A DNA stretch of 33,884 nt from Candidatus Woesearchaeota archaeon (GCA_964450135.1 CAYVCF010000003.1:1-33884), one strand, 5' to 3'; numbered from the stretch's first letter, positions 4,255 to 28,031 are shown. A program made the numbers and translations. The notes: generated by a model from the letters alone, not told the origin.

Positions 4255-4734
4255 AGAAAAAATAATGCAAAAAATCTTTACTTATGTTTTTCGTCGGCAA
4301 AATTGTTGAGCAAAGTTAATTGCAAAAAATTATTTTCAAAATAAAGAAATTGCTTAAAATTTTTGCATCTCAATCACAGCAAGTTGCGGGGTCTTGCGAA
4401 AATTTTTTTCTACGCAACCGGCAACACAGAAAACAATCTCCAATTTATTTTCTCCGTCGATGTTTTCTGTTCTCCCCAAATCCGCGAATAAATCAAAAAG
4501 GATTTGGTGATTTTCTATCTCTCGCCAAATTTCTTTATTTGTCAGTTAATTTGCCGAGGCCAGAAAATACCGACGACAAAAAAATTTTCTGTATTTCAAT
4601 TTGTTTCGTAGCAAGCTACGGGGTATTAACCAAAATTGAAAATAATAGAAGATATAGTTTGTAATAACTCATAACTCAATTCTCGTCGCGAATTTCAATT
4701 TTTTGAAAAGTATTTTTTATTAAAATTTTAAGAA

Positions 4735-9553: not shown

Positions 9554-10270
9554 TTAAAATCCTTCCAACATTTCTTTTTCCAAAAAATGAAGTTTTGCTG
9601 AAACAATAAAACAGAACGGGTTTTTTATTCTGACTTTTCTTAAAATTTCAAGGGGGGCATAAACAATTTTTGGATTTTCTGTTCCGAGTCGTGAACAAAC
9701 CAAAATATTTCCTAATTTTAATTTTTGTTTTTCTGCAGAAAGTTCAAATTGTTCAACCGCTTTTTCAAAATCAAGTCCGATATCGACGAGAATTAAACTA
9801 TGAGCGTTAATTGAAAGATTTTCTTTTACAATTTCTATAAAACTATCTGGAGTAAAATTTTTTTCTTTTTGCCACACAGGCATTGAAGAAATTTTTCCAA
9901 ATTTGTAAAGTTGCAGACCAGTTTGAGAAATCGCGTCAAAAATACTCGCGTTGTAAATTATTTCATATTTTGTTCTACAGGCCTTTGCTTCTTGAATTAA
10001 ACTAATGTGCGTTGTTGCGAAAAGCGGACTTCCGTAAATTAAAAGCGCGACATCTTTTTTGCTTGCCTCGTCGACGATTTGCAAACTTTCAACAAATTCT
10101 CTGTCTGCTTGAATAATTTTTTTCCCAAGAAAGTTCTCTAATAATTTAATTTCATAAGGAAATTCAATAGTATAATTTTCCAAATAAACTTGTTTGCATT
10201 TTTTAACCGCTTCCAATCCTTGTTTTGAAATGCTTTTTTCATTCAGACCAAGTCCGATTAAGTATAACAT
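9554..10270 (-). CDS. dphB: Diphthine synthase
   Basis: MLYLIGLGL N-terminus and tetrapyrrole-methylase-like fold, 238 aa. Archaea/eukaryote-specific enzyme. Confidence 0.85.
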   Translation of the reverse strand: MLYLIGLGLNEKSISKQGLEAVKKCKQVYLENYTIEFPYEIKLLENFLGKKIIQADREFVESLQIVDEASKKDVALLIYGSPLFATTHISLIQEAKACRTKYEIIYNASIFDAISQTGLQLYKFGKISSMPVWQKEKNFTPDSFIEIVKENLSINAHSLILVDIGLDFEKAVEQFELSAEKQKLKLGNILVCSRLGTENPKIVYAPLEILRKVRIKNPFCFIVSAKLHFLEKEMLEGF

Positions 10271-10781
10271 AATTTAGAAAGTTTTTTTGAGTTTATAAGT
10301 TTTCTTTTGTGAATATTGTAAAGTAAAAGAGCTTTGGTGAAACCATAAAAAAGCGTTAAGTCAAGTTCATAACTTAACCTAAATCTCATTTGGATAAGCT
10401 TTTACTCCTCGATGAAATCTTTTTTCATTAAACCATCTTCGCCATTTTTCTATGCATTTGTCGTCGAGCCACAGCGGAAAAGCAAAAGCAACGAATTTAT
10501 TATAAGAGATTTTTATTTTCTGACTTCGTTAATCCTCGTCGGTAATTGGGAAGTCCACAGAATTTTGCATCCTGAAATTTGTTTCAAAAAATATTTAAAA
10601 TTAGTTGAAGAAAAATTTTCTAATCGGGAAGTTGGTTAATTTTTATTTATTTTATTTTTTGAATAAATTTAGCACGAGCTAAAATCTTTTTATTATTTTT
10701 GGATTTACAATTTAATTTTTAAAAAAGTTATAACCAAAATTTAATTTTTTCAAGAACCTTGATTTAAATTTTATAATTAAT

Positions 10782-10833
10782 AAACCCGTTTAAACTGGTT
10801 TGTTCGGAATACTTAATAACAGTATCTCCGAAC
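10782..10833. promoter_or_regulatory. GTTTAAAC-centred 20-nt imperfect palindrome followed by a 12-bp bulged stem-loop
   Basis: aaacccgtttaaactggttt (10782-10801) is palindromic with one mismatch. gttcggaatac (10802-10812) pairs with gtatctccgaac (10822-10833) with one bulge. A near copy of the palindrome lies at 15036-15055. Confidence 0.45.
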
Positions 10834-11057
10834 AGGATTTTTTAAAATAATTTACCCCTAAAAAATTTCAAGAAAAATATACCCCTCCGATTGCTCGGAG
10901 AGTTATGTCTAAATTAAAAAAATATATCGATAGGAAATATTAAGGGATAAGACAGAAAAAATTTTTAAACAAAACATTTAAAAACCGCCAAATCAAAATA
11001 TTTTTGTAGAGAAAAGGAAATGCACTATTCTCTTATTGATTAAACAAAATAAGAAAA

Positions 11058-11729
11058 ATGACAGAAAGAAAAGTTGTAATACCTGGAGAAATTATCAAAG
11101 AAGGAAATGATTTTTTGCCAGGAGACGGAACAGAAAAACAAGGAAATAATATTATTGCTCTAAAATTCGGTTTAGCAGAAGAGCAAGACCGGCTTGTAAA
11201 AGTAATTCCCTTATCAGGGGTCTATATTCCTCGTCGTGGAAATGTTGTAATCGGCAGAGTTACAAATGTGACTTTTAACGGTTGGTGCATAGACATTGAC
11301 ACATCTGAAAATTCTTTTTTGCCTCTGGCAGAAGTTCCAAGATTCATAAATAAAAACGAACTTGAAAAATTAATGGACATCGGAGATATGGTTGTCGCGA
11401 AAATCTGGAACATTGGCGGAAGAGGAATTGACTTAAGCATAAATTCAAGAGGTCTGGGAAAAATAGATGAGGGTCTAATTATAAAAGTTAATCCGCACAA
11501 AGTCCCGCGAATTATCGGCAAAGAAGGAAGCATGATAAATTTAATTAAAGAAAAAACAAAATGCGAAATCACAGTCGGACAAAACGGATTTATTTGGATT
11601 CAAGGTAAAAAAATTGAAGAAGAAATTTTATCAAAAAACGCAATAAATTTTATTTGCGAAAAATCTTTTGTTTCAGGTTTAACAGAAGAAGTTGAAAATT
11701 GGTTTGCAAAAAATGGAGGAGAAAAATGA
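11058..11729 (+). CDS. rrp4: Exosome complex RNA-binding subunit Rrp4 (S1 + KH)
   Basis: VIPGEII...PGDGT N-domain, S1 segment (GNVVIGRVTNVTFNGWCIDI) and KH motif (RIIGKEGSMINLI...VGQNGFIWI). Confidence 0.9.
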   Translation: MTERKVVIPGEIIKEGNDFLPGDGTEKQGNNIIALKFGLAEEQDRLVKVIPLSGVYIPRRGNVVIGRVTNVTFNGWCIDIDTSENSFLPLAEVPRFINKNELEKLMDIGDMVVAKIWNIGGRGIDLSINSRGLGKIDEGLIIKVNPHKVPRIIGKEGSMINLIKEKTKCEITVGQNGFIWIQGKKIEEEILSKNAINFICEKSFVSGLTEEVENWFAKNGGEK

Positions 11730-11950
11730 AAGAAAGATTGGGAAGAACATTTGTCGCCGGAAAATTAACTAGACAAATTTTTGATTATTTGGAATCAAGA
11801 GGACTTACTGCGATAAGGTATTCTGGAGGAAAATTTGACATTTTTGATTTAGGAGATTTTAATGGAAAACTTTCAGAACAAGATGCAGAAAGATTAAGAA
11901 GAAAAAATAATCTTACAGTTTCAGTTTATGAATTGGAGGCAACAGCATAA
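11726..11950 (+). CDS. Unrecognised 74-aa ORF (orfA) inside the exosome operon
   Basis: ATG 11726 overlaps the rrp4 stop (ATGA). Protein-like composition. Its 3' end is DNA-similar to the end of orfB. Confidence 0.5.
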   Translation: MKERLGRTFVAGKLTRQIFDYLESRGLTAIRYSGGKFDIFDLGDFNGKLSEQDAERLRRKNNLTVSVYELEATA

Positions 11951-11968
11951 AATGACAAAAGAATTTAA
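11941..11968 (+). repeat. 28-nt perfect direct repeat, copy 1 (orfA stop / orfB start junction)
   Basis: aacagcataaaatgacaaaagaatttaa is identical to 12189-12216. Confidence 0.9.
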
Positions 11969-12203
11969 TCAAAGATTAATAACAAGAAGAACAAGAGAAG
12001 GAGTTCAATATTCCTTATATTCAGGAGAAAGTAGAATTGCTGTAGCAATTAGTGTTAGAGGGTTAATGCAAACTTGCGCGAATGCAAAACCATTTAGAAC
12101 TTATGCCAGAGAATCTGAAAGACAATTAAGAGAAAACCCAGATTTAAATGCAATAGAAGTTAAATTATACAATGTATATGAGGGGAGAAACAGCATAAAA
12201 TGA
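11952..12203 (+). CDS. Unrecognised 83-aa basic ORF (orfB) inside the exosome operon
   Basis: Starts MTKEF with the same five codons as rrp41, because of the 28-nt repeat. Its stop overlaps the rrp41 ATG (ATGA). Confidence 0.5.
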   Translation: MTKEFNQRLITRRTREGVQYSLYSGESRIAVAISVRGLMQTCANAKPFRTYARESERQLRENPDLNAIEVKLYNVYEGRNSIK

Positions 12204-12216
12204 CAAAAGAATTTAA
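12189..12216 (+). repeat. 28-nt perfect direct repeat, copy 2 (orfB stop / rrp41 start junction)
   Basis: Identical to 11941-11968, 248 bp downstream. Confidence 0.9.
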
Positions 12217-12916
12217 ACGAGCAGACGGAAGAAAGCCAGACGAATTTAGAAAAATAATTGCAAAAGTTGGAGTTGTGCCAAACGCCAACGGAAGTGCAGT
12301 TTTTGAATTTGGGGGAACAAAAGCAATTGCAGCTGTCTACGGCCCAAAGGAAATGCACCCGCAACATTCTCAAAATCCAGAAAAAGGGACTTTACGAGTT
12401 ACTTACAACATGATGAGTTTCTCTGTTCACGACAGAATAAAACCTGGACCAAGCAGAAGAAGCATGGAAATCAGCAACATAAGTGGCTGGGCTCTTGACC
12501 CTGTTGTAAATTTAGATAAATTTCCAGGAAAAGTTGTTGATGTTCACATTGATATTATGCAAGCAAATGCCTCAACTCGTTGTGCTGGAATAAACGCTGC
12601 TTCGCTTGCGTTGGCTCACGCAGGAATTCCAATGAAAGATTTGGTCTCAAGTGTTTCAATCGGAAAATTAGATAAACAATTAGTTGTAGATGTCAGCAAA
12701 TTTGAAGAGGACTGGGAAGAAGGCGAAGGTGCAACAGATATCGCAATGTCTTTCACAAGTGCAGGCGAATTAACTCACATCCAGCTCGATGGCCACATCA
12801 GTGTCAAAGAATTAAAAGAAGCAATTCACCTTGGACAAAAAAAGACAAAAGAAATTTACGAAATTCAAAAAAAAGTTTTAAAGGACTCAATAAAATTAGG
12901 AGAAGAAAATGGATAA
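12200..12916 (+). CDS. rrp41: Exosome complex exonuclease Rrp41 (RNase PH domain)
   Basis: RADGRKPDEFR motif and RNase PH fold signatures (GSAVFEFGGTKAIAAVYGP, ANASTRCAGINAASLALAHAGIPM). Confidence 0.9.
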   Translation: MTKEFKRADGRKPDEFRKIIAKVGVVPNANGSAVFEFGGTKAIAAVYGPKEMHPQHSQNPEKGTLRVTYNMMSFSVHDRIKPGPSRRSMEISNISGWALDPVVNLDKFPGKVVDVHIDIMQANASTRCAGINAASLALAHAGIPMKDLVSSVSIGKLDKQLVVDVSKFEEDWEEGEGATDIAMSFTSAGELTHIQLDGHISVKELKEAIHLGQKKTKEIYEIQKKVLKDSIKLGEENG

Positions 12917-13361
12917 ACAAAAAAGATTAGAAATTGGAAGACCGGAAGTTTTGCAAGTTGGAACTGAAACAAGACCAATTGTATATTTAGAAAAAATGGA
13001 AAATCCCGATTATTTTGTTTTTATAACTACTCCAACCGAGACGTATGTAGAGAGAAGTTTGAATAATTCACATTTTTCTGTCGCAAAAATATTTTTGCAA
13101 ACTTTATGGAAAATTCCCGACGACAAAGTTGATTATTTTTTGCATAAATCAAAATTAAATTTCAAAAACCTATTTTTGCAAAGTTCTCTAGAAGTGATAA
13201 GAATAAAACCAACCTTTGCAACTATTTTAGGTCAAAATGTTTCTGTAAAAGATTGGAGATTTGCTGAAAGATATGAAGAAATTTTTTTTGGAAGAAGATA
13301 TCAACAACTTGTTGCCCAATGGAATCAAGCAATGCAACCAAGACAAGAGGTGACAGCGTAA
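12909..13361 (+). CDS. Unrecognised 150-aa ORF (orfC) between rrp41 and rrp42
   Basis: Start overlaps the rrp41 end by 8 nt. Ends ...EVTA-taa-a-atg, like orfA (...EATA-taa-a-atg). No family recognised. Confidence 0.55.
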   Translation: MDKQKRLEIGRPEVLQVGTETRPIVYLEKMENPDYFVFITTPTETYVERSLNNSHFSVAKIFLQTLWKIPDDKVDYFLHKSKLNFKNLFLQSSLEVIRIKPTFATILGQNVSVKDWRFAERYEEIFFGRRYQQLVAQWNQAMQPRQEVTA

Positions 13362-13362
13362 A

Positions 13363-13485
13363 ATGAAAAATGAACTTAAAATAAAATTGAATTTATGCGA
13401 TATCGTCGGAGGCATAGAAAAATATCGCTCACCTGAACAAAAAAGGGAAATTCATAAAAAAAACCTCGAGGTTGTTTTTAAATGA
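13363..13485 (+). CDS. Unrecognised 40-aa basic mini-ORF (orfD), not in the ORF track
   Basis: My translation is MKNELKIKLNLCDIVGGIEKYRSPEQKREIHKKNLEVVFK. The start lies in a diverged copy of the repeated junction. The stop overlaps the rrp42 ATG (ATGA). Confidence 0.35.
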   Translation: MKNELKIKLNLCDIVGGIEKYRSPEQKREIHKKNLEVVFK

Positions 13486-14282
13486 CTGAACAAATTACCC
13501 CAAAACTTACAGCAGACAGAATAAAAAAATATTTAGAACAAGGAAAAAGATTTGACAAAAGAGAGCTAATAGAGTTTAGAGAAATTTCAATTGAGACAGG
13601 AATTTCAGAAAACGCAGAAGGAAGCGCAAGAGTTAAAATCGGAAAAACAGAAGTTCTCGTCGGTGTTAAGATGAATGTCGGCGAGCCATATCCTGATTCT
13701 CAAGACAAAGGAAATTTAATGGTAAGTGTTGAACTTCTTCCATTGAGTTCTCCAAAATATGAACTCGGCCCTCCGAAATTTGATTCAATTGAAATAGGAA
13801 GAATTACAGACAGAGCAATCAGAGAAAGTAAAGTAATTGAATTAGAAAAACTTTGCATTAAAGAAGGAGAAAAGGTCTGGACAATTTTCATAGATGTTTA
13901 CTCAATCAACGACGACGGAAATTTAATTGACGCTGCGTGCATTGGCGCAATCGCTGCTTTGAAAAATGCAAAAATTCCATTTTACGACGAAGAAACAGGA
14001 AAAATTGATTATGAAAAAGAATCAAAACAAAAACTTCCGCTAGCAAAAAAAATTCCGCTTTCAATTTCTTTCCATAAAATAGGAGATAGTATAATTGTTG
14101 ATCCAACAACAGAAGAAGAAAATATAAGCGATACAAGAATTGCAATCGGAAGCGCAGACGGAATAATTAGTTCAATGCAAAAAAGCAACGAGCAAAGCAT
14201 TAAAGTTGAAGAAATGGAAAAAATTTTAGACATGGTTGAAAAGGTCTGGAAAGGCATTAGTAAAAAATTAGAAAAATTATAG
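13482..14282 (+). CDS. rrp42: Exosome complex subunit Rrp42 (inactive RNase PH-like)
   Basis: RNase PH-like domain (DKRELIEFREISIETG...NAEGSARVKIGKTEVLVGVK). Position follows rrp41. Confidence 0.88.
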   Translation: MTEQITPKLTADRIKKYLEQGKRFDKRELIEFREISIETGISENAEGSARVKIGKTEVLVGVKMNVGEPYPDSQDKGNLMVSVELLPLSSPKYELGPPKFDSIEIGRITDRAIRESKVIELEKLCIKEGEKVWTIFIDVYSINDDGNLIDAACIGAIAALKNAKIPFYDEETGKIDYEKESKQKLPLAKKIPLSISFHKIGDSIIVDPTTEEENISDTRIAIGSADGIISSMQKSNEQSIKVEEMEKILDMVEKVWKGISKKLEKL

Positions 14283-14322
14283 TAAATGACATAATAAATT
14301 AAACAAAATCTATGCCCTTGAC

Positions 14323-14330
14323 TATAAATA
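14323..14330 (+). promoter_or_regulatory. TATA-box-like element upstream of rpoK
   Basis: tataaata ends 32 nt before ATG 14362. The spacing fits a short-leader or leaderless archaeal promoter. Confidence 0.4.
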
Positions 14331-14361
14331 AGTTTTTAAATTAAAAAAATCAAAATATAAA

Positions 14362-14748
14362 ATGATAGATGCAAATCAATTTACAAAATACGAAAAAGCA
14401 AGAATACTTGGTGCAAGAGCTTTGCAAATTGCAATGAACGCCCCCTTACTTATAAAAATAAATCAAGAGGACTTAGAAAAAATTCACTACGACGCTCTGA
14501 AAATCGCAGAAACAGAATTAAATTCAAATGTTCTTCCAATTTCTGTTCACAGACCTTTTCCAAAAAAGAAAGAAGAAAAATTAAGAAGAACAAAAGAACA
14601 AAAAATTGACGACGACGAAATTGAAAAAAAAGAAGCAAGCGAGGAAGAAGAAATCGCAAAAGAAGGCGAGATAATGGAACTTGCAAATCCTGAAGAAGAA
14701 AAAGACGAGACAGAATCTTTTTCAGAAAGTTCTGAAGAAAGGGAATAA
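14362..14748 (+). CDS. rpoK: DNA-directed RNA polymerase subunit K (Rpo6) with a long charged C-terminal extension
   Basis: FTKYEKARILGARALQIAMNAPLL core. Residues ~65-128 form a K/E/D-rich tail. Confidence 0.85.
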   Translation: MIDANQFTKYEKARILGARALQIAMNAPLLIKINQEDLEKIHYDALKIAETELNSNVLPISVHRPFPKKKEEKLRRTKEQKIDDDEIEKKEASEEEEIAKEGEIMELANPEEEKDETESFSESSEERE

Positions 14749-15095: not shown

Positions 15096-15590
15096 TTATT
15101 CACAACTTTCAATAGAATTTATTACACTCACAACTCCGCAAGAATCTCCATTTACAAATGGAATTATTTCTATTCTGTCTGGCTTTAATTTAAAATAATC
15201 TGTTTTTATTTTGTAGGTTTTTCCAGAATTTGTCGTCGGTATTTTTGTATCTGAGCCAGTTCCCACTGCTTCAAGGTTTGCATTATCTATATAATTTAAT
15301 TCTATTGTTTTCACATTTCCCTCTCCAGAAACAGAGAGAATTATTTTATCTAAATTTATTTCTCCGACTTTTACAGAAAATTTTGTCTGCGTCGTCGCTG
15401 AATCAATTTCAGTGTAGCAAGTGTATAATTGATTTAATTCAACTTTGTTAAAGACCTCTAGACAAGATTCTGCTTCGTCCAAATTTTTTTCCACAATGTT
15501 TCTTGCCACAACCCAAACAATGGAGGTTATTGCTAAAACAAGTGCGATTAAAAGAACTGTTGCGATTATTGTTGAGACAGCTTTTTTCAT
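15096..15590 (-). CDS. Archaeal type IV pilin-like protein (class III signal peptide)
   Basis: MKKAVSTIIATVLLIALVLAITSIVWVV N-terminus (archaellin/pilin N-terminal domain). C-terminal IIPF...C...C motif shared with two paralogs. Confidence 0.8.
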   Translation of the reverse strand: MKKAVSTIIATVLLIALVLAITSIVWVVARNIVEKNLDEAESCLEVFNKVELNQLYTCYTEIDSATTQTKFSVKVGEINLDKIILSVSGEGNVKTIELNYIDNANLEAVGTGSDTKIPTTNSGKTYKIKTDYFKLKPDRIEIIPFVNGDSCGVVSVINSIESCE

Positions 15591-15774: not shown

Positions 15775-16239
15775 TCATATTGTAATTTCTTCTCCGTATT
15801 TCTCGTCGCAAACATAAGACGCCTGACCTTTATTTGAATTTCCAAGCAAGACAGGAATTAAAATAATTTTTTCTGCTGAAGAAATTGAAGACGGAAGAGA
15901 TGCGTCGCTGACTGAGTTTACTTTTCCTGCTGGAAGCGGTTCGTTTATTTCTTCTGTTGTGTAACTCTCGTCGCTGAAAATTTTTATTTTGAATTTTAAA
16001 ATAGGAACTGTTCCTGTGTTGGAAATATCTAAACCAGAATAAGAATAACCTGCTTCAAAATTTATCTTTTCGCAAGCGAGTTCAATATTTTCGTTTCCGA
16101 ATTTTGTTATTGCTTCTTTTGTAATTCCTCTCATCCACAAAAATACAATCATTCCCAAAACAAGAACAATGCTTATTAAAAGAACTGTTGCGACAATCGG
16201 AGAGACCGCTTTTTTTATTTTTCTTTTTTTTAGATTCAT
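15775..16239 (-). CDS. Archaeal type IV pilin-like protein (class III signal peptide)
   Basis: KKAVSPIVATVLLISIVLVLGMIVFLW N-terminus. Shares a 19-nt identical stretch (attaaaagaactgttgcga) with the 15096-15590 paralog. Confidence 0.85.
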   Translation of the reverse strand: MNLKKRKIKKAVSPIVATVLLISIVLVLGMIVFLWMRGITKEAITKFGNENIELACEKINFEAGYSYSGLDISNTGTVPILKFKIKIFSDESYTTEEINEPLPAGKVNSVSDASLPSSISSAEKIILIPVLLGNSNKGQASYVCDEKYGEEITI

Positions 16240-26968: not shown

Positions 26969-27232
26969 TCATTTATATATTTCGTCATGATGAGCATAAT
27001 CAAGAAGACGAATTATTCTCTCATTTTCAAGAATTTCGTAGGTCAATACAAAATTTCTAATATGAACTCTCCATTGTCCAGACATATTTGCAGTCAAAGG
27101 TTTTCCTATTTTTGGGTTTTCAATTATTTCATTTATTTTTCTTGTTAATATTTCAAATTGAAGTTTATCTTTTTTTGATAATTTAGAAAAAATTCTGTCT
27201 AAATGTTCTGAAATTAAAATCCCATAAACCAT
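26969..27232 (-). CDS. RelE/ParE-family type II toxin
   Basis: 87 aa. KIGKPLTANMSGQWRVHIRNFVLTYEILENERIIRLLDYAHHDEIY matches the RelE/ParE C-terminal pattern. It directly follows a small antitoxin-like gene. Confidence 0.7.
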   Translation of the reverse strand: MVYGILISEHLDRIFSKLSKKDKLQFEILTRKINEIIENPKIGKPLTANMSGQWRVHIRNFVLTYEILENERIIRLLDYAHHDEIYK

Positions 27233-27240
27233 AACTTAAT

Positions 27241-27468
27241 TTATGAATACTTCTTCTTAAAATTTTCTATACTTCCCACTTTAACAAATCTCCCCTTTCT
27301 TATAGATTCCAGTTTATTGAGATATTCTGCGCGTATTTTAGGAACAATTTCTATTTGAGATTTAATAAAAATATTTATTTGTTTGCTCATGCTTAAACCA
27401 TGTTCTCTGCAAAATTCTGCGAATTGATTATAAATACTTTCTTCTAAATTAAATGTTTTTATTACCAT
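27241..27468 (-). CDS. Antitoxin candidate (RHH/DinJ-like) of the RelE/ParE pair
   Basis: 75-aa ORF 8 nt upstream of the toxin. N-terminus MVIKTFNLEESIYNQFAEFCREHGLSMSKQINIFI fits a ribbon-helix-helix-like fold. Confidence 0.6.
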   Translation of the reverse strand: MVIKTFNLEESIYNQFAEFCREHGLSMSKQINIFIKSQIEIVPKIRAEYLNKLESIRKGRFVKVGSIENFKKKYS

Positions 27469-28031
27469 TAAATAATCTTATATAATGTTATTTAAATACT
27501 TTTTGTTTTAAATTTTTTGGTTTTTTGATATCGGGGGCAAATTTAAAAATAAATCTCTCGTCGAGAAATTAAAAGAAAGAAAAAATACGCACTTCGTGCA
27601 ATTTATTTTGCTTCAAAATTGGTTTTGCTTAATTTTTCCGCAGAAAAATTATTAATCTGAAAAGAATCTTTACTCTTGATTATTGGTTTTGAAAATGAGA
27701 GCAAAGTTTTTTGTAAATCGTGACTTACTTTAATTCAGGATTTAAAAGATTATTTATTTCCCAAAAAAATTTTTTCGCGAGCGAGCCAAATTATTTCAAA
27801 AGATTTCTCCCTCTCTTGTTTTCAAAAAAAAGAAATAAAAAATAAAGACAACCTTGCGGTTTTCTTATAGAGTTTTCCCTCTATTTGCGGTTAAGCGATA
27901 TTTTTTTATGCCTCCTTTCATATCGCGGAAAAGACAACTTAGCAGTTTTCTTTTTAATCTTTCGCGTTTATTTTCAGTTTTTAATTTTCTCGTCGACAAA
28001 CTGAAACCAAAAAATCCAATGGATTTTTGGG

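Follow-up and report, generated by a model that had tools for sequence, protein, structure and literature searches.

The genes of the archaeal exosome are reportedly part of a superoperon, psmA-SBDS-rrp4-rrp41-rrp42 and onward, described by Koonin and colleagues in 2001, and it is the rrp4-rrp41-rrp42 section of such an operon that concerns us here. In a stretch of 33,884 nucleotides (nt) from a Candidatus Woesearchaeota archaeon (GCA_964450135.1 CAYVCF010000003.1:1-33884), referred to below as the window, four small open reading frames (ORFs), orfA to orfD, stand between these three genes. Extra genes that separate two neighbours found side by side in related genomes are familiar from phages, where they are called morons and typically carry a promoter and a terminator of their own. 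Among prokaryotes, gene overlaps are dominated by the -4 and -1 types, above all where the products assemble into a complex (PMC6728339, PMC10666635), and genes for subunits of heteromeric complexes are over-represented in tightly overlapping pairs (PMC10666635). In an archaeon and in a bacterium alike, a spacer of about 20 nt between stop and start all but eliminates termination-reinitiation (PMC10666635, PMC6728339). Repeats can also enter genes without breaking them: the Rickettsia palindromic elements are in-frame insertions into ORFs of the miniature inverted-repeat transposable element (MITE) type (PMC10969869).

We suggest, with a probability of roughly 60%, that orfA to orfD are strain-variable junction cassettes, that is, small, promoterless, dispensable genes together with gene-like read-throughs of mobile repeats, seated at the exact stop/start junctions of the exosome operon. 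The layout of the operon, rrp4-orfA-orfB-rrp41-orfC-orfD-rrp42, is as the original prediction for this DNA had given it, in gene order, ORF sizes and junction types alike (ORF map and raw sequence; Table 1). Rrp4 has its N-terminal, S1 and KH domains and is followed by rrp41 and then rrp42, both of the RNase PH type, an order also found in related loci. All the genes are co-oriented, and from rrp4 to rrp42 the stop/start spacings are, in order, -4, +1, -4, -8, +1 and -4 nt: ATGA overlaps at 11726, 12200 and 13482, TAAaATG junctions at 11948 and 13359, and an 8-nt overlap at 12909. This is the arrangement of a termination-reinitiation chain, with a Shine-Dalgarno (SD)-like motif preceding each of the six internal starts. 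The core genes themselves are not directly adjacent; the inserted ORFs total 470 nt at rrp4/rrp41 and 565 nt at rrp41/rrp42. As predicted, none of the four products belongs to a recognised family, searches of Pfam, PHROGs, NCBIfam, PADLOC and PDB sequence profiles being empty. We also looked for a match to known superoperon proteins that the first reading might have missed; the same five resources gave none, and with Foldseek results unspecific or empty we rejected the idea that orfA to orfD belong to such proteins or to any known family.

What the original prediction described for one operon is found across the clade. We fetched 160 related loci (numbered below with the prefix L) and located rrp4, rrp41, rrp42 and rpoK in each, and 146 non-identical loci were used for gap sizes. 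The adjacency of rrp4, rrp41 and rrp42, taken by the original prediction as the archaeal norm, holds here for 56 of 119 related non-identical loci; the remaining 63 have an insert at rrp4/rrp41, at rrp41/rrp42 or at both. Gaps at rrp4/rrp41 are bimodal (n = 122), with 72 of at most 20 nt, none of 21-99 nt and 50 (41%) of at least 100 nt. The corresponding counts are 96, 5 and 38 (27%) at rrp41/rrp42 (n = 139) and 75, 25 and 15 at rrp42/rpoK (n = 115). At each of these three junctions the median insert is about 260-290 nt, and the psmA/SBDS junction, further upstream, likewise takes inserts. Among 100 distinct gaps in all, coverage of at least 90% by same-strand ORFs was found for 94-97% at the two exosome junctions and for 88% at rrp42/rpoK, as against 1.2% for shuffled sequence. 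Spacing in the relatives is equally stereotyped: 91 of 209 junctions are of the +1 type (TAAaATG) and 52 of the -4 type (ATGA), together 143. The conserved genes are preceded by an SD motif in 30% of cases after an insert and in 67% at uninterrupted junctions, compared with 7% at random positions.

The inserted proteins are extremely heterogeneous in sequence, 110 junction proteins forming 91 BLASTP clusters of which 83 are singletons. Named families are limited to an acyl carrier protein, a cupin and zinc-ribbon types (phrog_1076, FmdB-like; NF047912, CxxC), and two further PHROG matches are to families of unknown function. The acyl carrier protein and the cupin occur at L052 3128-3409 (rrp4/rrp41) and in a junction ORF of L024, which indicates that ordinary genes can be junction cargo. 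We also considered whether all of the seemingly unrelated cassettes might be one family that has diverged beyond recognition. This seems unlikely, since the orfB family can still be recognised (47-50% identity) between loci whose Rrp41 is 72-74% identical and other loci give no match to the family's hidden Markov model (HMM), and it is also contradicted by contigs whose flanks are 95-98.5% identical and whose contents differ.

Evidence for turnover comes from close strains. Locus L084, with an Rrp41 97% identical to that of the window, retains orfA and orfD, and in place of orfB has a 628-nt block of two unrelated ORFs (X1X2). L085 (Rrp41 92% identical) has an unrelated 127-amino-acid (aa) membrane ORF at rrp4/rrp41, and its rrp41 and rrp42 overlap directly, providing an empty site. 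In L169 and L170 the orfA DNA is 100% of the window type and the X1X2 block 100% of the L084 type, in flanking DNA 95-98.5% identical to the window, and the mismatch maps show clean recombination breakpoints; these loci are mosaics. In L172 (Rrp41 96% identical) a different ORF, of 114 aa, stands where orfA would be, and an orfB homologue comes next. The cassette-like insertion and turnover originally proposed are thus strongly borne out by the empty site of L085, the mosaics and the replacement in L172. Conservation in close relatives, which the original prediction had made a test of the ORFs, is mixed: orfA (77% aa identity) and orfD (90%) are kept in L084, and orfB is absent from L084, L085, L169 and L170. 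Loss and replacement among such close strains imply that orfA to orfD are dispensable and are swapped between co-existing strains, and from comparative sequence data we conclude that they are dispensable cassettes and not core exosome subunits.

Selection on the cassettes is relaxed, as a comparison of the ratio of nonsynonymous to synonymous substitution (dN/dS) makes plain: values for the mini-ORFs lie at 0.3-0.6, those of the neighbouring genes at 0.04-0.11. Against L084 the figures are 0.04 for rrp4, 0.05 for rrp41, 0.11 for rrp42 and 0.10 for rpoK, as compared with 0.56 for orfA, 0.55 for orfD and 0.3-0.5 for the ends of orfC; orfB, compared with L172, gives 0.48, with a synonymous divergence (dS) the same as that of its flanks. 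Over greater distances recognisable cassettes are seldom shared, only 5 of 156 genome pairs with Rrp41 80-90% identical and rrp4/rrp41 filled in both having one in common. One family of about 97 aa at rrp41/rrp42 (L034, L106, L140, L144, L148 and L153; ...HNYE...CEDVKN...LETKLT) has a dS between strains that reaches 12 times the value for the rrp41 beside it.

A simple filter could account for these features. Cassettes would be transcribed from the promoter of the exosome operon and translated through the same termination-reinitiation chain that joins rrp4, rrp41 and rrp42. Because reinitiation fails beyond about 20 nt from stop to start, only inserts whose ORF spans the junction should be tolerated; an insert would survive only as an open, same-strand ORF running from the stop of the upstream gene to the start of the downstream gene, and as long as the chain is intact the protein sequence of the cassette would matter little. 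Such a coupling filter would produce the exact +1 and -4 geometry, an in-frame MITE and a structured repeat (see below), and almost free sequence evolution, and it is consistent with the ORF filling, the spacing, the drop in SD motifs from 67% to 30% and the relaxed dN/dS. Turnover would proceed by recombination between co-existing strains. For the entry of DNA we see three candidate routes: insertion with copying of the target start; recombination, unequal or guided by short homology, of start regions that resemble one another; and exchange of alleles by way of conserved flanks.

Several observations weigh against this interpretation. The dependence of downstream genes on cassette translation is argued from geometry and by analogy with work in Haloferax and E. 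coli, and the SD-like motif at all six starts of the window would allow independent initiation, so that strict dependence on reinitiation is not required. Pure hitchhikers would not be expected to stay beside the same gene as the orfB family has beside rrp41 in four lineages, and a dN/dS near 0.5 together with conserved motifs in that family indicates some function at the protein level. The roughly 12-fold dS of the 97-aa family suggests the import of divergent alleles or diversifying selection in place of neutral drift; between L144 and L148, for example, the cassette dS is 0.68 and that of the flanking rrp41 0.056. Finally, a comparison of 109 adjacent start pairs gave a similarity of 19.0 of 44 positions as against 18.9 in the control, providing no uniform signature of insertion.

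Our repeat scan recovered the perfect 28-nt direct repeat that had been noticed originally, and the homology of the window to L084, L169 and L170 stops at 11963 and returns at 12193, edges that fall within its two copies. A diverged third copy, at the orfC/orfD junction, is also present as claimed, and part of its similarity is accounted for by the general layout of SD motif, stop and start. The core GCRTAAAATG occurs at three junctions only in the 34-kb window, where 0.29 occurrences would be expected by chance; with just these three sites, all in this operon, it was rejected as a genome-wide junction or attachment motif. Similarity between the 3' parts of orfA and orfB, a further claim of the original prediction, did not survive: outside the repeat, DNA and protein similarity are at the level of shuffled sequences, and we accordingly discard the possibility that the two ORFs are paralogues or the product of a 248-nt tandem duplication. 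The proposal that the insertion copied the start of rrp41 needs qualification. The resemblance is real, and it is not simply a fresh scar, since all four members of the orfB family share the start of their own Rrp41. The resemblance is hence ancestral in the family; to account for perfect identity over 28 nt, a duplication must have accompanied insertion recently or the two starts must have undergone gene conversion, and the repeat is thus either the scar of the orfB insertion or the result of conversion between two ancestrally similar starts. Whatever its origin, it would permit precise loss of orfB. Target-site duplication as a general rule at junction inserts was rejected, start contexts being no closer than controls.

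We take orfA and orfB to be genuine small proteins subject to weak constraint. Codon usage is gene-like in each, and orfA is preceded by the SD motif GGAGGAG. An AlphaFold2 model of orfA, built from three sequences, predicts a beta-alpha-beta-beta-alpha-beta ferredoxin-like fold (predicted local distance difference test, pLDDT, 85), for which Foldseek returns generic matches only (EF-G domains, ACT, PII; best E 6e-3). Just two other homologue clusters were found among 5.8 billion protein clusters. One homologue of orfA (66 aa, 38% identity, E 4e-10) lies between psmA and SBDS at L175 844-1044, which places the orfA family at different superoperon junctions in different lineages. For orfB a word-indexed protein search recovered only the query itself, and phmmer against 1.84 billion representatives found three further members (P0008, P0009 and P0010, 47-71% identical). 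A fifth phmmer match, P0011 (3251 aa), was considered as a protein of repeated orfB domains and dismissed as a compositional artefact of tetratricopeptide repeats, as the family HMM does not match it. Every one of the four known members stands immediately upstream of rrp41 and begins with MTKxF or MKKEF, matching its own Rrp41, and they share the core YSG...CANAKPFRxY...ER. When run against all ORFs of the approximately 170 loci fetched, the family HMM matched only at the loci of known members, in four lineages. The AlphaFold2 model of orfB has a pLDDT of 70 and no fold match.

orfC is a real yet mosaic ORF, enlarged by a 137-nt MITE. Its starting ATG occupies the position of the rrp42 ATG in the empty-site relative L085. 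In L084 the counterpart is 113 aa long (with P0004 as a near-identical protein) and resembles orfC in only the first 21 or so and the last 23 or so residues, the core being hyper-diverged. Codon usage is gene-like in the outer parts, and the MITE segment has a coding signal near zero. Assignment of this segment as a MITE rests on its terminal inverted repeats, GAGAAGTTTG and CAAAGTTCTC (9 of 10 positions pair, and 13 of the first 17), on target-site duplications (TSDs) that differ between copies (TAGA and ATCA), on near-identical copies at unrelated sites, and on a length too short for a transposase. The second copy, at L164 5114-5250 and likewise in L165-L168, is identical at 137 of 138 aligned positions (99.3%) and is flanked by the TSD ATCA; it sits inside an unrelated 140-aa ORF (P0003) between rpoB and rpoA, so that both known copies lie within junction ORFs of essential operons. 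L171 may hold a third flank. Five of the six frames of the MITE are closed, and both copies are read through in the remaining, open one. Because MITE and TSD together make 141 nt, or 47 codons, insertion always preserves the reading frame. The RNA fold of the element has a z-score of -2.3. In the window no autonomous insertion sequence with matching termini was seen.

We regard orfD as mainly a non-coding repeat element that has been recruited as a bridging ORF. The roughly 90 nt beneath it form three hairpins and belong to an element with two further copies, one beside a ParE-like toxin gene and a diverged one in L171. Both of these have stop codons in the orfD frame, the element being open only at the exosome junction, and the codon signal of orfD is near zero. 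Neither this repeat nor the MITE within orfC had been noticed in the original prediction. Three compensatory pairs support the fold; the loop of the last hairpin is TCGA, GCGA or GCAA, and GCTT in the diverged L171 copy, and an AAAACC-loop-GGTT hairpin followed by a T-run ends the element. A covariance model scores the copy at 27843-27931 at 99 bits, although that copy was itself a training sequence, and over 760 kb of related loci the model found the known copies and one weak match in L171 only. Such an element could be a terminator, a stability element or a small mobile repeat. Neither it nor the MITE has an exact match in viral contigs, and a viral origin of either was rejected. Beside the second copy the ParE-like gene (26970-27232, - strand; Pfam PF15781, PF05016) and an upstream ORF for a 75-aa partner without a Pfam match (27240-27468, - strand) constitute a probable type II toxin-antitoxin pair.

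Inserts in a second essential operon were seen in L164 (5001-6228) and likewise in L165-L168, contigs from the same samples that stem from a co-occurring, possibly identical, organism. Four ORFs, co-oriented and tightly spaced, lie there between rpoB and rpoA: the 140-aa ORF P0003, one of 58 aa, and a toxin-antitoxin pair made up of an MNT nucleotidyltransferase and the toxin HepT. The 140-aa ORF carries at its start (MKTRNIL) a duplicate of the first codons of the 58-aa ORF (MITRNIL), about 24 nt long and with a single mismatch; a third duplicated start region, in L106, has 34 of 44 positions alike.

The original prediction offered two functional explanations, lineage-specific accessory subunits and addiction-type genes, neither of which our data establish. 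That orfA, orfB or both serve the exosome as accessory subunits or as regulators, their translation alongside Rrp4 and Rrp41 allowing assembly on the nascent complex, we consider unlikely. The constant position of the orfB family directly upstream of rrp41 in four lineages, its Rrp41-like MTKxF start and its conserved core are what one would expect of such proteins, the ferredoxin-like fold predicted for orfA is common among RNA-binding and regulatory modules, and overlapping gene pairs are, as noted, enriched for heteromeric-complex subunits (PMC10666635). An accessory subunit should also occur consistently with its complex, however, and orfA to orfD are absent or replaced in relatives with Rrp41 92-97% identical: orfB in L084 (97%), L085 (92%) and L169/L170 (flanks 95-98.5%), orfA in L172 (96%). 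Moreover, the only distant homologue of orfA is at psmA/SBDS, away from the exosome genes, the orfB HMM is confined to the loci of known members, and a dN/dS of about 0.5 contrasts with 0.04-0.1 for the core subunits. The second explanation, that the mini-ORFs are selfish or conflict genes (for addiction, immunity or anti-defence) that cannot be silenced or lost in essential transcripts and are kept diverse by frequency-dependent selection, we think rather improbable as well. It draws on the cassettes that differ between near-identical strains, the HepT/MNT pair in the analogous rpoB/rpoA slot from the same sample, the ParE-like gene adjoining the second orfD-type element, and the dS of 0.68 beside an rrp41 at 0.056, an allele-import pattern typical of conflict loci. 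Yet neither orfA to orfD nor six cassettes of neighbouring strains match toxin-antitoxin or defence families in Pfam or PADLOC, the single PADLOC match for orfA to orfD (E 0.0097, 34 residues) being noise; a two-gene toxin/antitoxin architecture is not evident among the four, the MITE and the orfD element have no exact match in viral contigs, and such cargo as can be recognised elsewhere is mundane (acyl carrier protein, cupin).

Two further explanations concern how the ORFs arose. A dedicated site-specific mechanism, integron-like or target-primed, might place promoterless cassettes into start codons and duplicate the first codons, the 28-nt repeat then being its attachment site. We judge this very unlikely, even though start duplications of 24-34 nt are found at three independent sites (28 of 28 in the window, about 24 nt in L164, 34 of 44 in L106), the X1X2 block of L084 is bordered on both sides by GTTGCATAAAATG, 3' ends of about 20 nt are common to different cassettes (PERRTA* in L172, PERRVA* in L084; ACAGCRTAA in orfA, orfB and orfC), and the rrp41/rrp42 insert has its two edges exactly at the ATG. 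The 109 adjacent start pairs show no general excess of similarity, however, the repeats are of unequal length (13, 24, 28 and 34 nt), GCRTAAAATG is limited to this operon in the window, and neither integrase nor transposase domains occur among the 38 window proteins that were Pfam-scanned. An ancestral MTKxF would let gene conversion explain the repeat of the window, and the constraints of SD motif, stop and start by themselves yield similar 3' ends. Wider in scope is the improbable notion that Pacearchaeota-type DPANN archaea may own a dedicated, hitherto undescribed machinery by which promoterless mini-genes are placed at start codons in coupled essential operons (exosome, RNA polymerase, proteasome-SBDS), the first codons being duplicated; it would maintain in the population an integron-like reservoir of rapidly exchanged genes whose silencing would harm the host. 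Least probable of all, and by our estimate highly improbable, is that the ORFs are non-coding spacers or repeat elements with accidental frames, or gene-caller artefacts. That codon usage carries almost no signal in orfD or the MITE segment, both of them repeat elements that are non-coding elsewhere, is what such a reading would predict, but open frames of 74-150 codons are very unlikely to arise by chance at 31% G+C, gaps at the two exosome junctions are ORF-filled in 94-97% of cases as against 1.2% when shuffled, codon usage is gene-like in orfA, orfB and the flanks of orfC, orfA and orfB have conserved homologues free of frameshifts, and each mini-ORF start has an SD-like motif. On the ORF filling, codon usage and conserved homologues, pure artefact was rejected for orfA, orfB and orfC.

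Table 1. Genes, repeats and mobile elements of the interrupted exosome operon. Coordinates refer to the window unless a locus is named.
Feature	Coordinates	Strand	Description	Remarks
rrp4	11058..11729	+	exosome cap subunit, first gene of the unit	Pfam ECR1_N (ECR1_N_2), RRP4_S1, KH (KH_6)
orfA	11726..11950	+	74 aa	ATGA overlap with rrp4
orfB	11952..12203	+	83 aa	begins MTKEF
rrp41	12200..12916	+	exosome ring subunit	Pfam RNase_PH + RNase_PH_C
orfC	12909..13361	+	150 aa; mosaic junction ORF	MITE inside
orfD	13363..13485	+	40 aa; bridges orfC to rrp42	ATGA overlap
rrp42	13482..14282	+	second RNase PH ring subunit	Pfam RNase_PH + RNase_PH_C
rpoK (Rpb6)	14362..14748	+	next conserved gene after rrp42	Pfam
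Junction repeat copy 1	11941..11968	+	end of orfA, TAA, a, ATG, first five codons of orfB	perfect 28-nt direct repeat
Junction repeat copy 2	12189..12216	+	end of orfB and start of rrp41	perfect 28-nt direct repeat
Junction repeat copy 3, diverged	13352..13379	+	orfC/orfD junction	23/28 positions match
MITE	13052..13188	+	137 nt in orfC, read through in frame	TSD TAGA 13048-13051, 13189-13192
Three-hairpin repeat element	13392..13482	+	about 90 nt under orfD	last hairpin AAAACC-loop-GGTTGTTTTT just before rrp42 ATG
orfD-type element copy 2	27843..27931	-	intergenic	beside ParE-like toxin gene
orfD-type element copy 3, diverged	L171 644-732		non-coding DNA	

The organism, a Pacearchaeota-type archaeon from groundwater, belongs among the DPANN archaea: its Rrp41 is nearest to proteins of Pacearchaeota, Woesearchaeota and Nanoarchaeota from metagenome-assembled genomes, the best match in a reference genome being 78% identical, and several public contigs that are 99.97-100% identical to the window represent the same organism. 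Upstream of rrp4 the superoperon is broken (9554-11057); psmA-SBDS is not found there, unlike in 125 of the fetched loci, and in its place come a diphthine-synthase-like methylase gene on the opposite strand and then some 790 nt that are for the most part non-coding. Downstream, two adjoining ORFs without a Pfam match (15096-15590 and 15775-16239, both on the - strand) have hydrophobic, pilin-like N-termini of the class III signal type, with a 63-aa ORF between the two according to one gene caller. Scanning of the window and the region for Rfam families and tRNAs gave no RNA gene, and hidden RNA genes were rejected on that basis. A palindromic intergenic motif, TTTCTCGTCGACAAA or its complement TTTGTCGACGAGAAA, recurs in the window at about 4278-4329, 26960, 27550-27584 and 27980-28003, and also in L171 (536-586) and L085 (5044-5096); sometimes extended by about 35 nt of conserved sequence, it could be a repeat of the repetitive extragenic palindromic (REP) type or a regulatory site.

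If orfA to orfD are indeed junction cassettes, the stop/start junctions of essential operons in these small-genome archaea would offer small genes, whether new or mobile, a nursery and a parking place. Expression of an insert would come free, the sole filter being an open frame that ends at the next start codon, and translational coupling would be linked in a testable way to the birth and turnover of genes. This could help to explain the abundance of tiny orphan ORFs in DPANN genomes. Annotators should be aware that in these lineages the junctions of a "conserved operon" vary by strain. The empty and filled sites of near-identical strains, the frame-preserving MITE and the repeat that is open only at a junction would also constitute natural experiments on the tolerance of foreign sequence. 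Our search of the literature returned no description of variable ORFs at the junctions of the exosome operon, or at other coupled junctions, in DPANN archaea.

How, then, does this locus compare with the systems described to date? Like the archaeal exosome superoperon, it has core genes whose order and orientation are conserved in relatives; unlike it, variable ORFs break up to every junction, and the window is without psmA-SBDS upstream of rrp4. With coupled gene pairs (Huber et al. 2019, 2023; PMC6728339, PMC10666635) it shares the -4/+1 spacing, the co-orientation and an operon for a heteromeric complex, whereas the known cases are stable, functionally linked pairs and the chain here has been lengthened repeatedly by unrelated, dispensable ORFs. 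Integron cassettes are similarly small, promoterless ORFs in close co-oriented succession, including many orphans, with expression from a promoter upstream of them and short repeats at their boundaries. In the present case what recurs at the boundaries is a direct copy of the target gene's start region, and the setting is an essential operon and not an array beside an integrase. No attC-type sites appeared in a repeat scan of 10900-14400, which gave the direct junction repeats and, as inverted repeats, only those of the MITE and the orfD element; nor was there an intI/attI system, as judged by integrase domains in the same Pfam scan of 38 window proteins, which did not extend to small or otherwise unscanned ORFs. 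The in-frame MITE resembles the Rickettsia palindromic elements (PMC10969869) in its inverted termini, 4-bp TSD, multiple copies and the 47 extra codons it adds to two unrelated ORFs, and differs in that it is the element of a DPANN archaeon whose two known coding insertions are in dispensable junction ORFs of essential operons and not in housekeeping enzymes.

Phage morons offer another likeness. They too are small, mostly orphan genes of heterogeneous cargo, present or absent at precise boundaries among close relatives; the cassettes considered here lie in an essential cellular operon on which they appear to rely, a scan for promoters and terminators having found none, with bacterial-type models that are uninformative in this setting. 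Each part of the system is known: coupled operons, in-frame MITEs, accessory genes resembling morons or cassettes, and toxin-antitoxin modules. Their combination looks new, as does its frequency, in about half of the genomes of the clade and at the exact stop/start junctions of essential operons.

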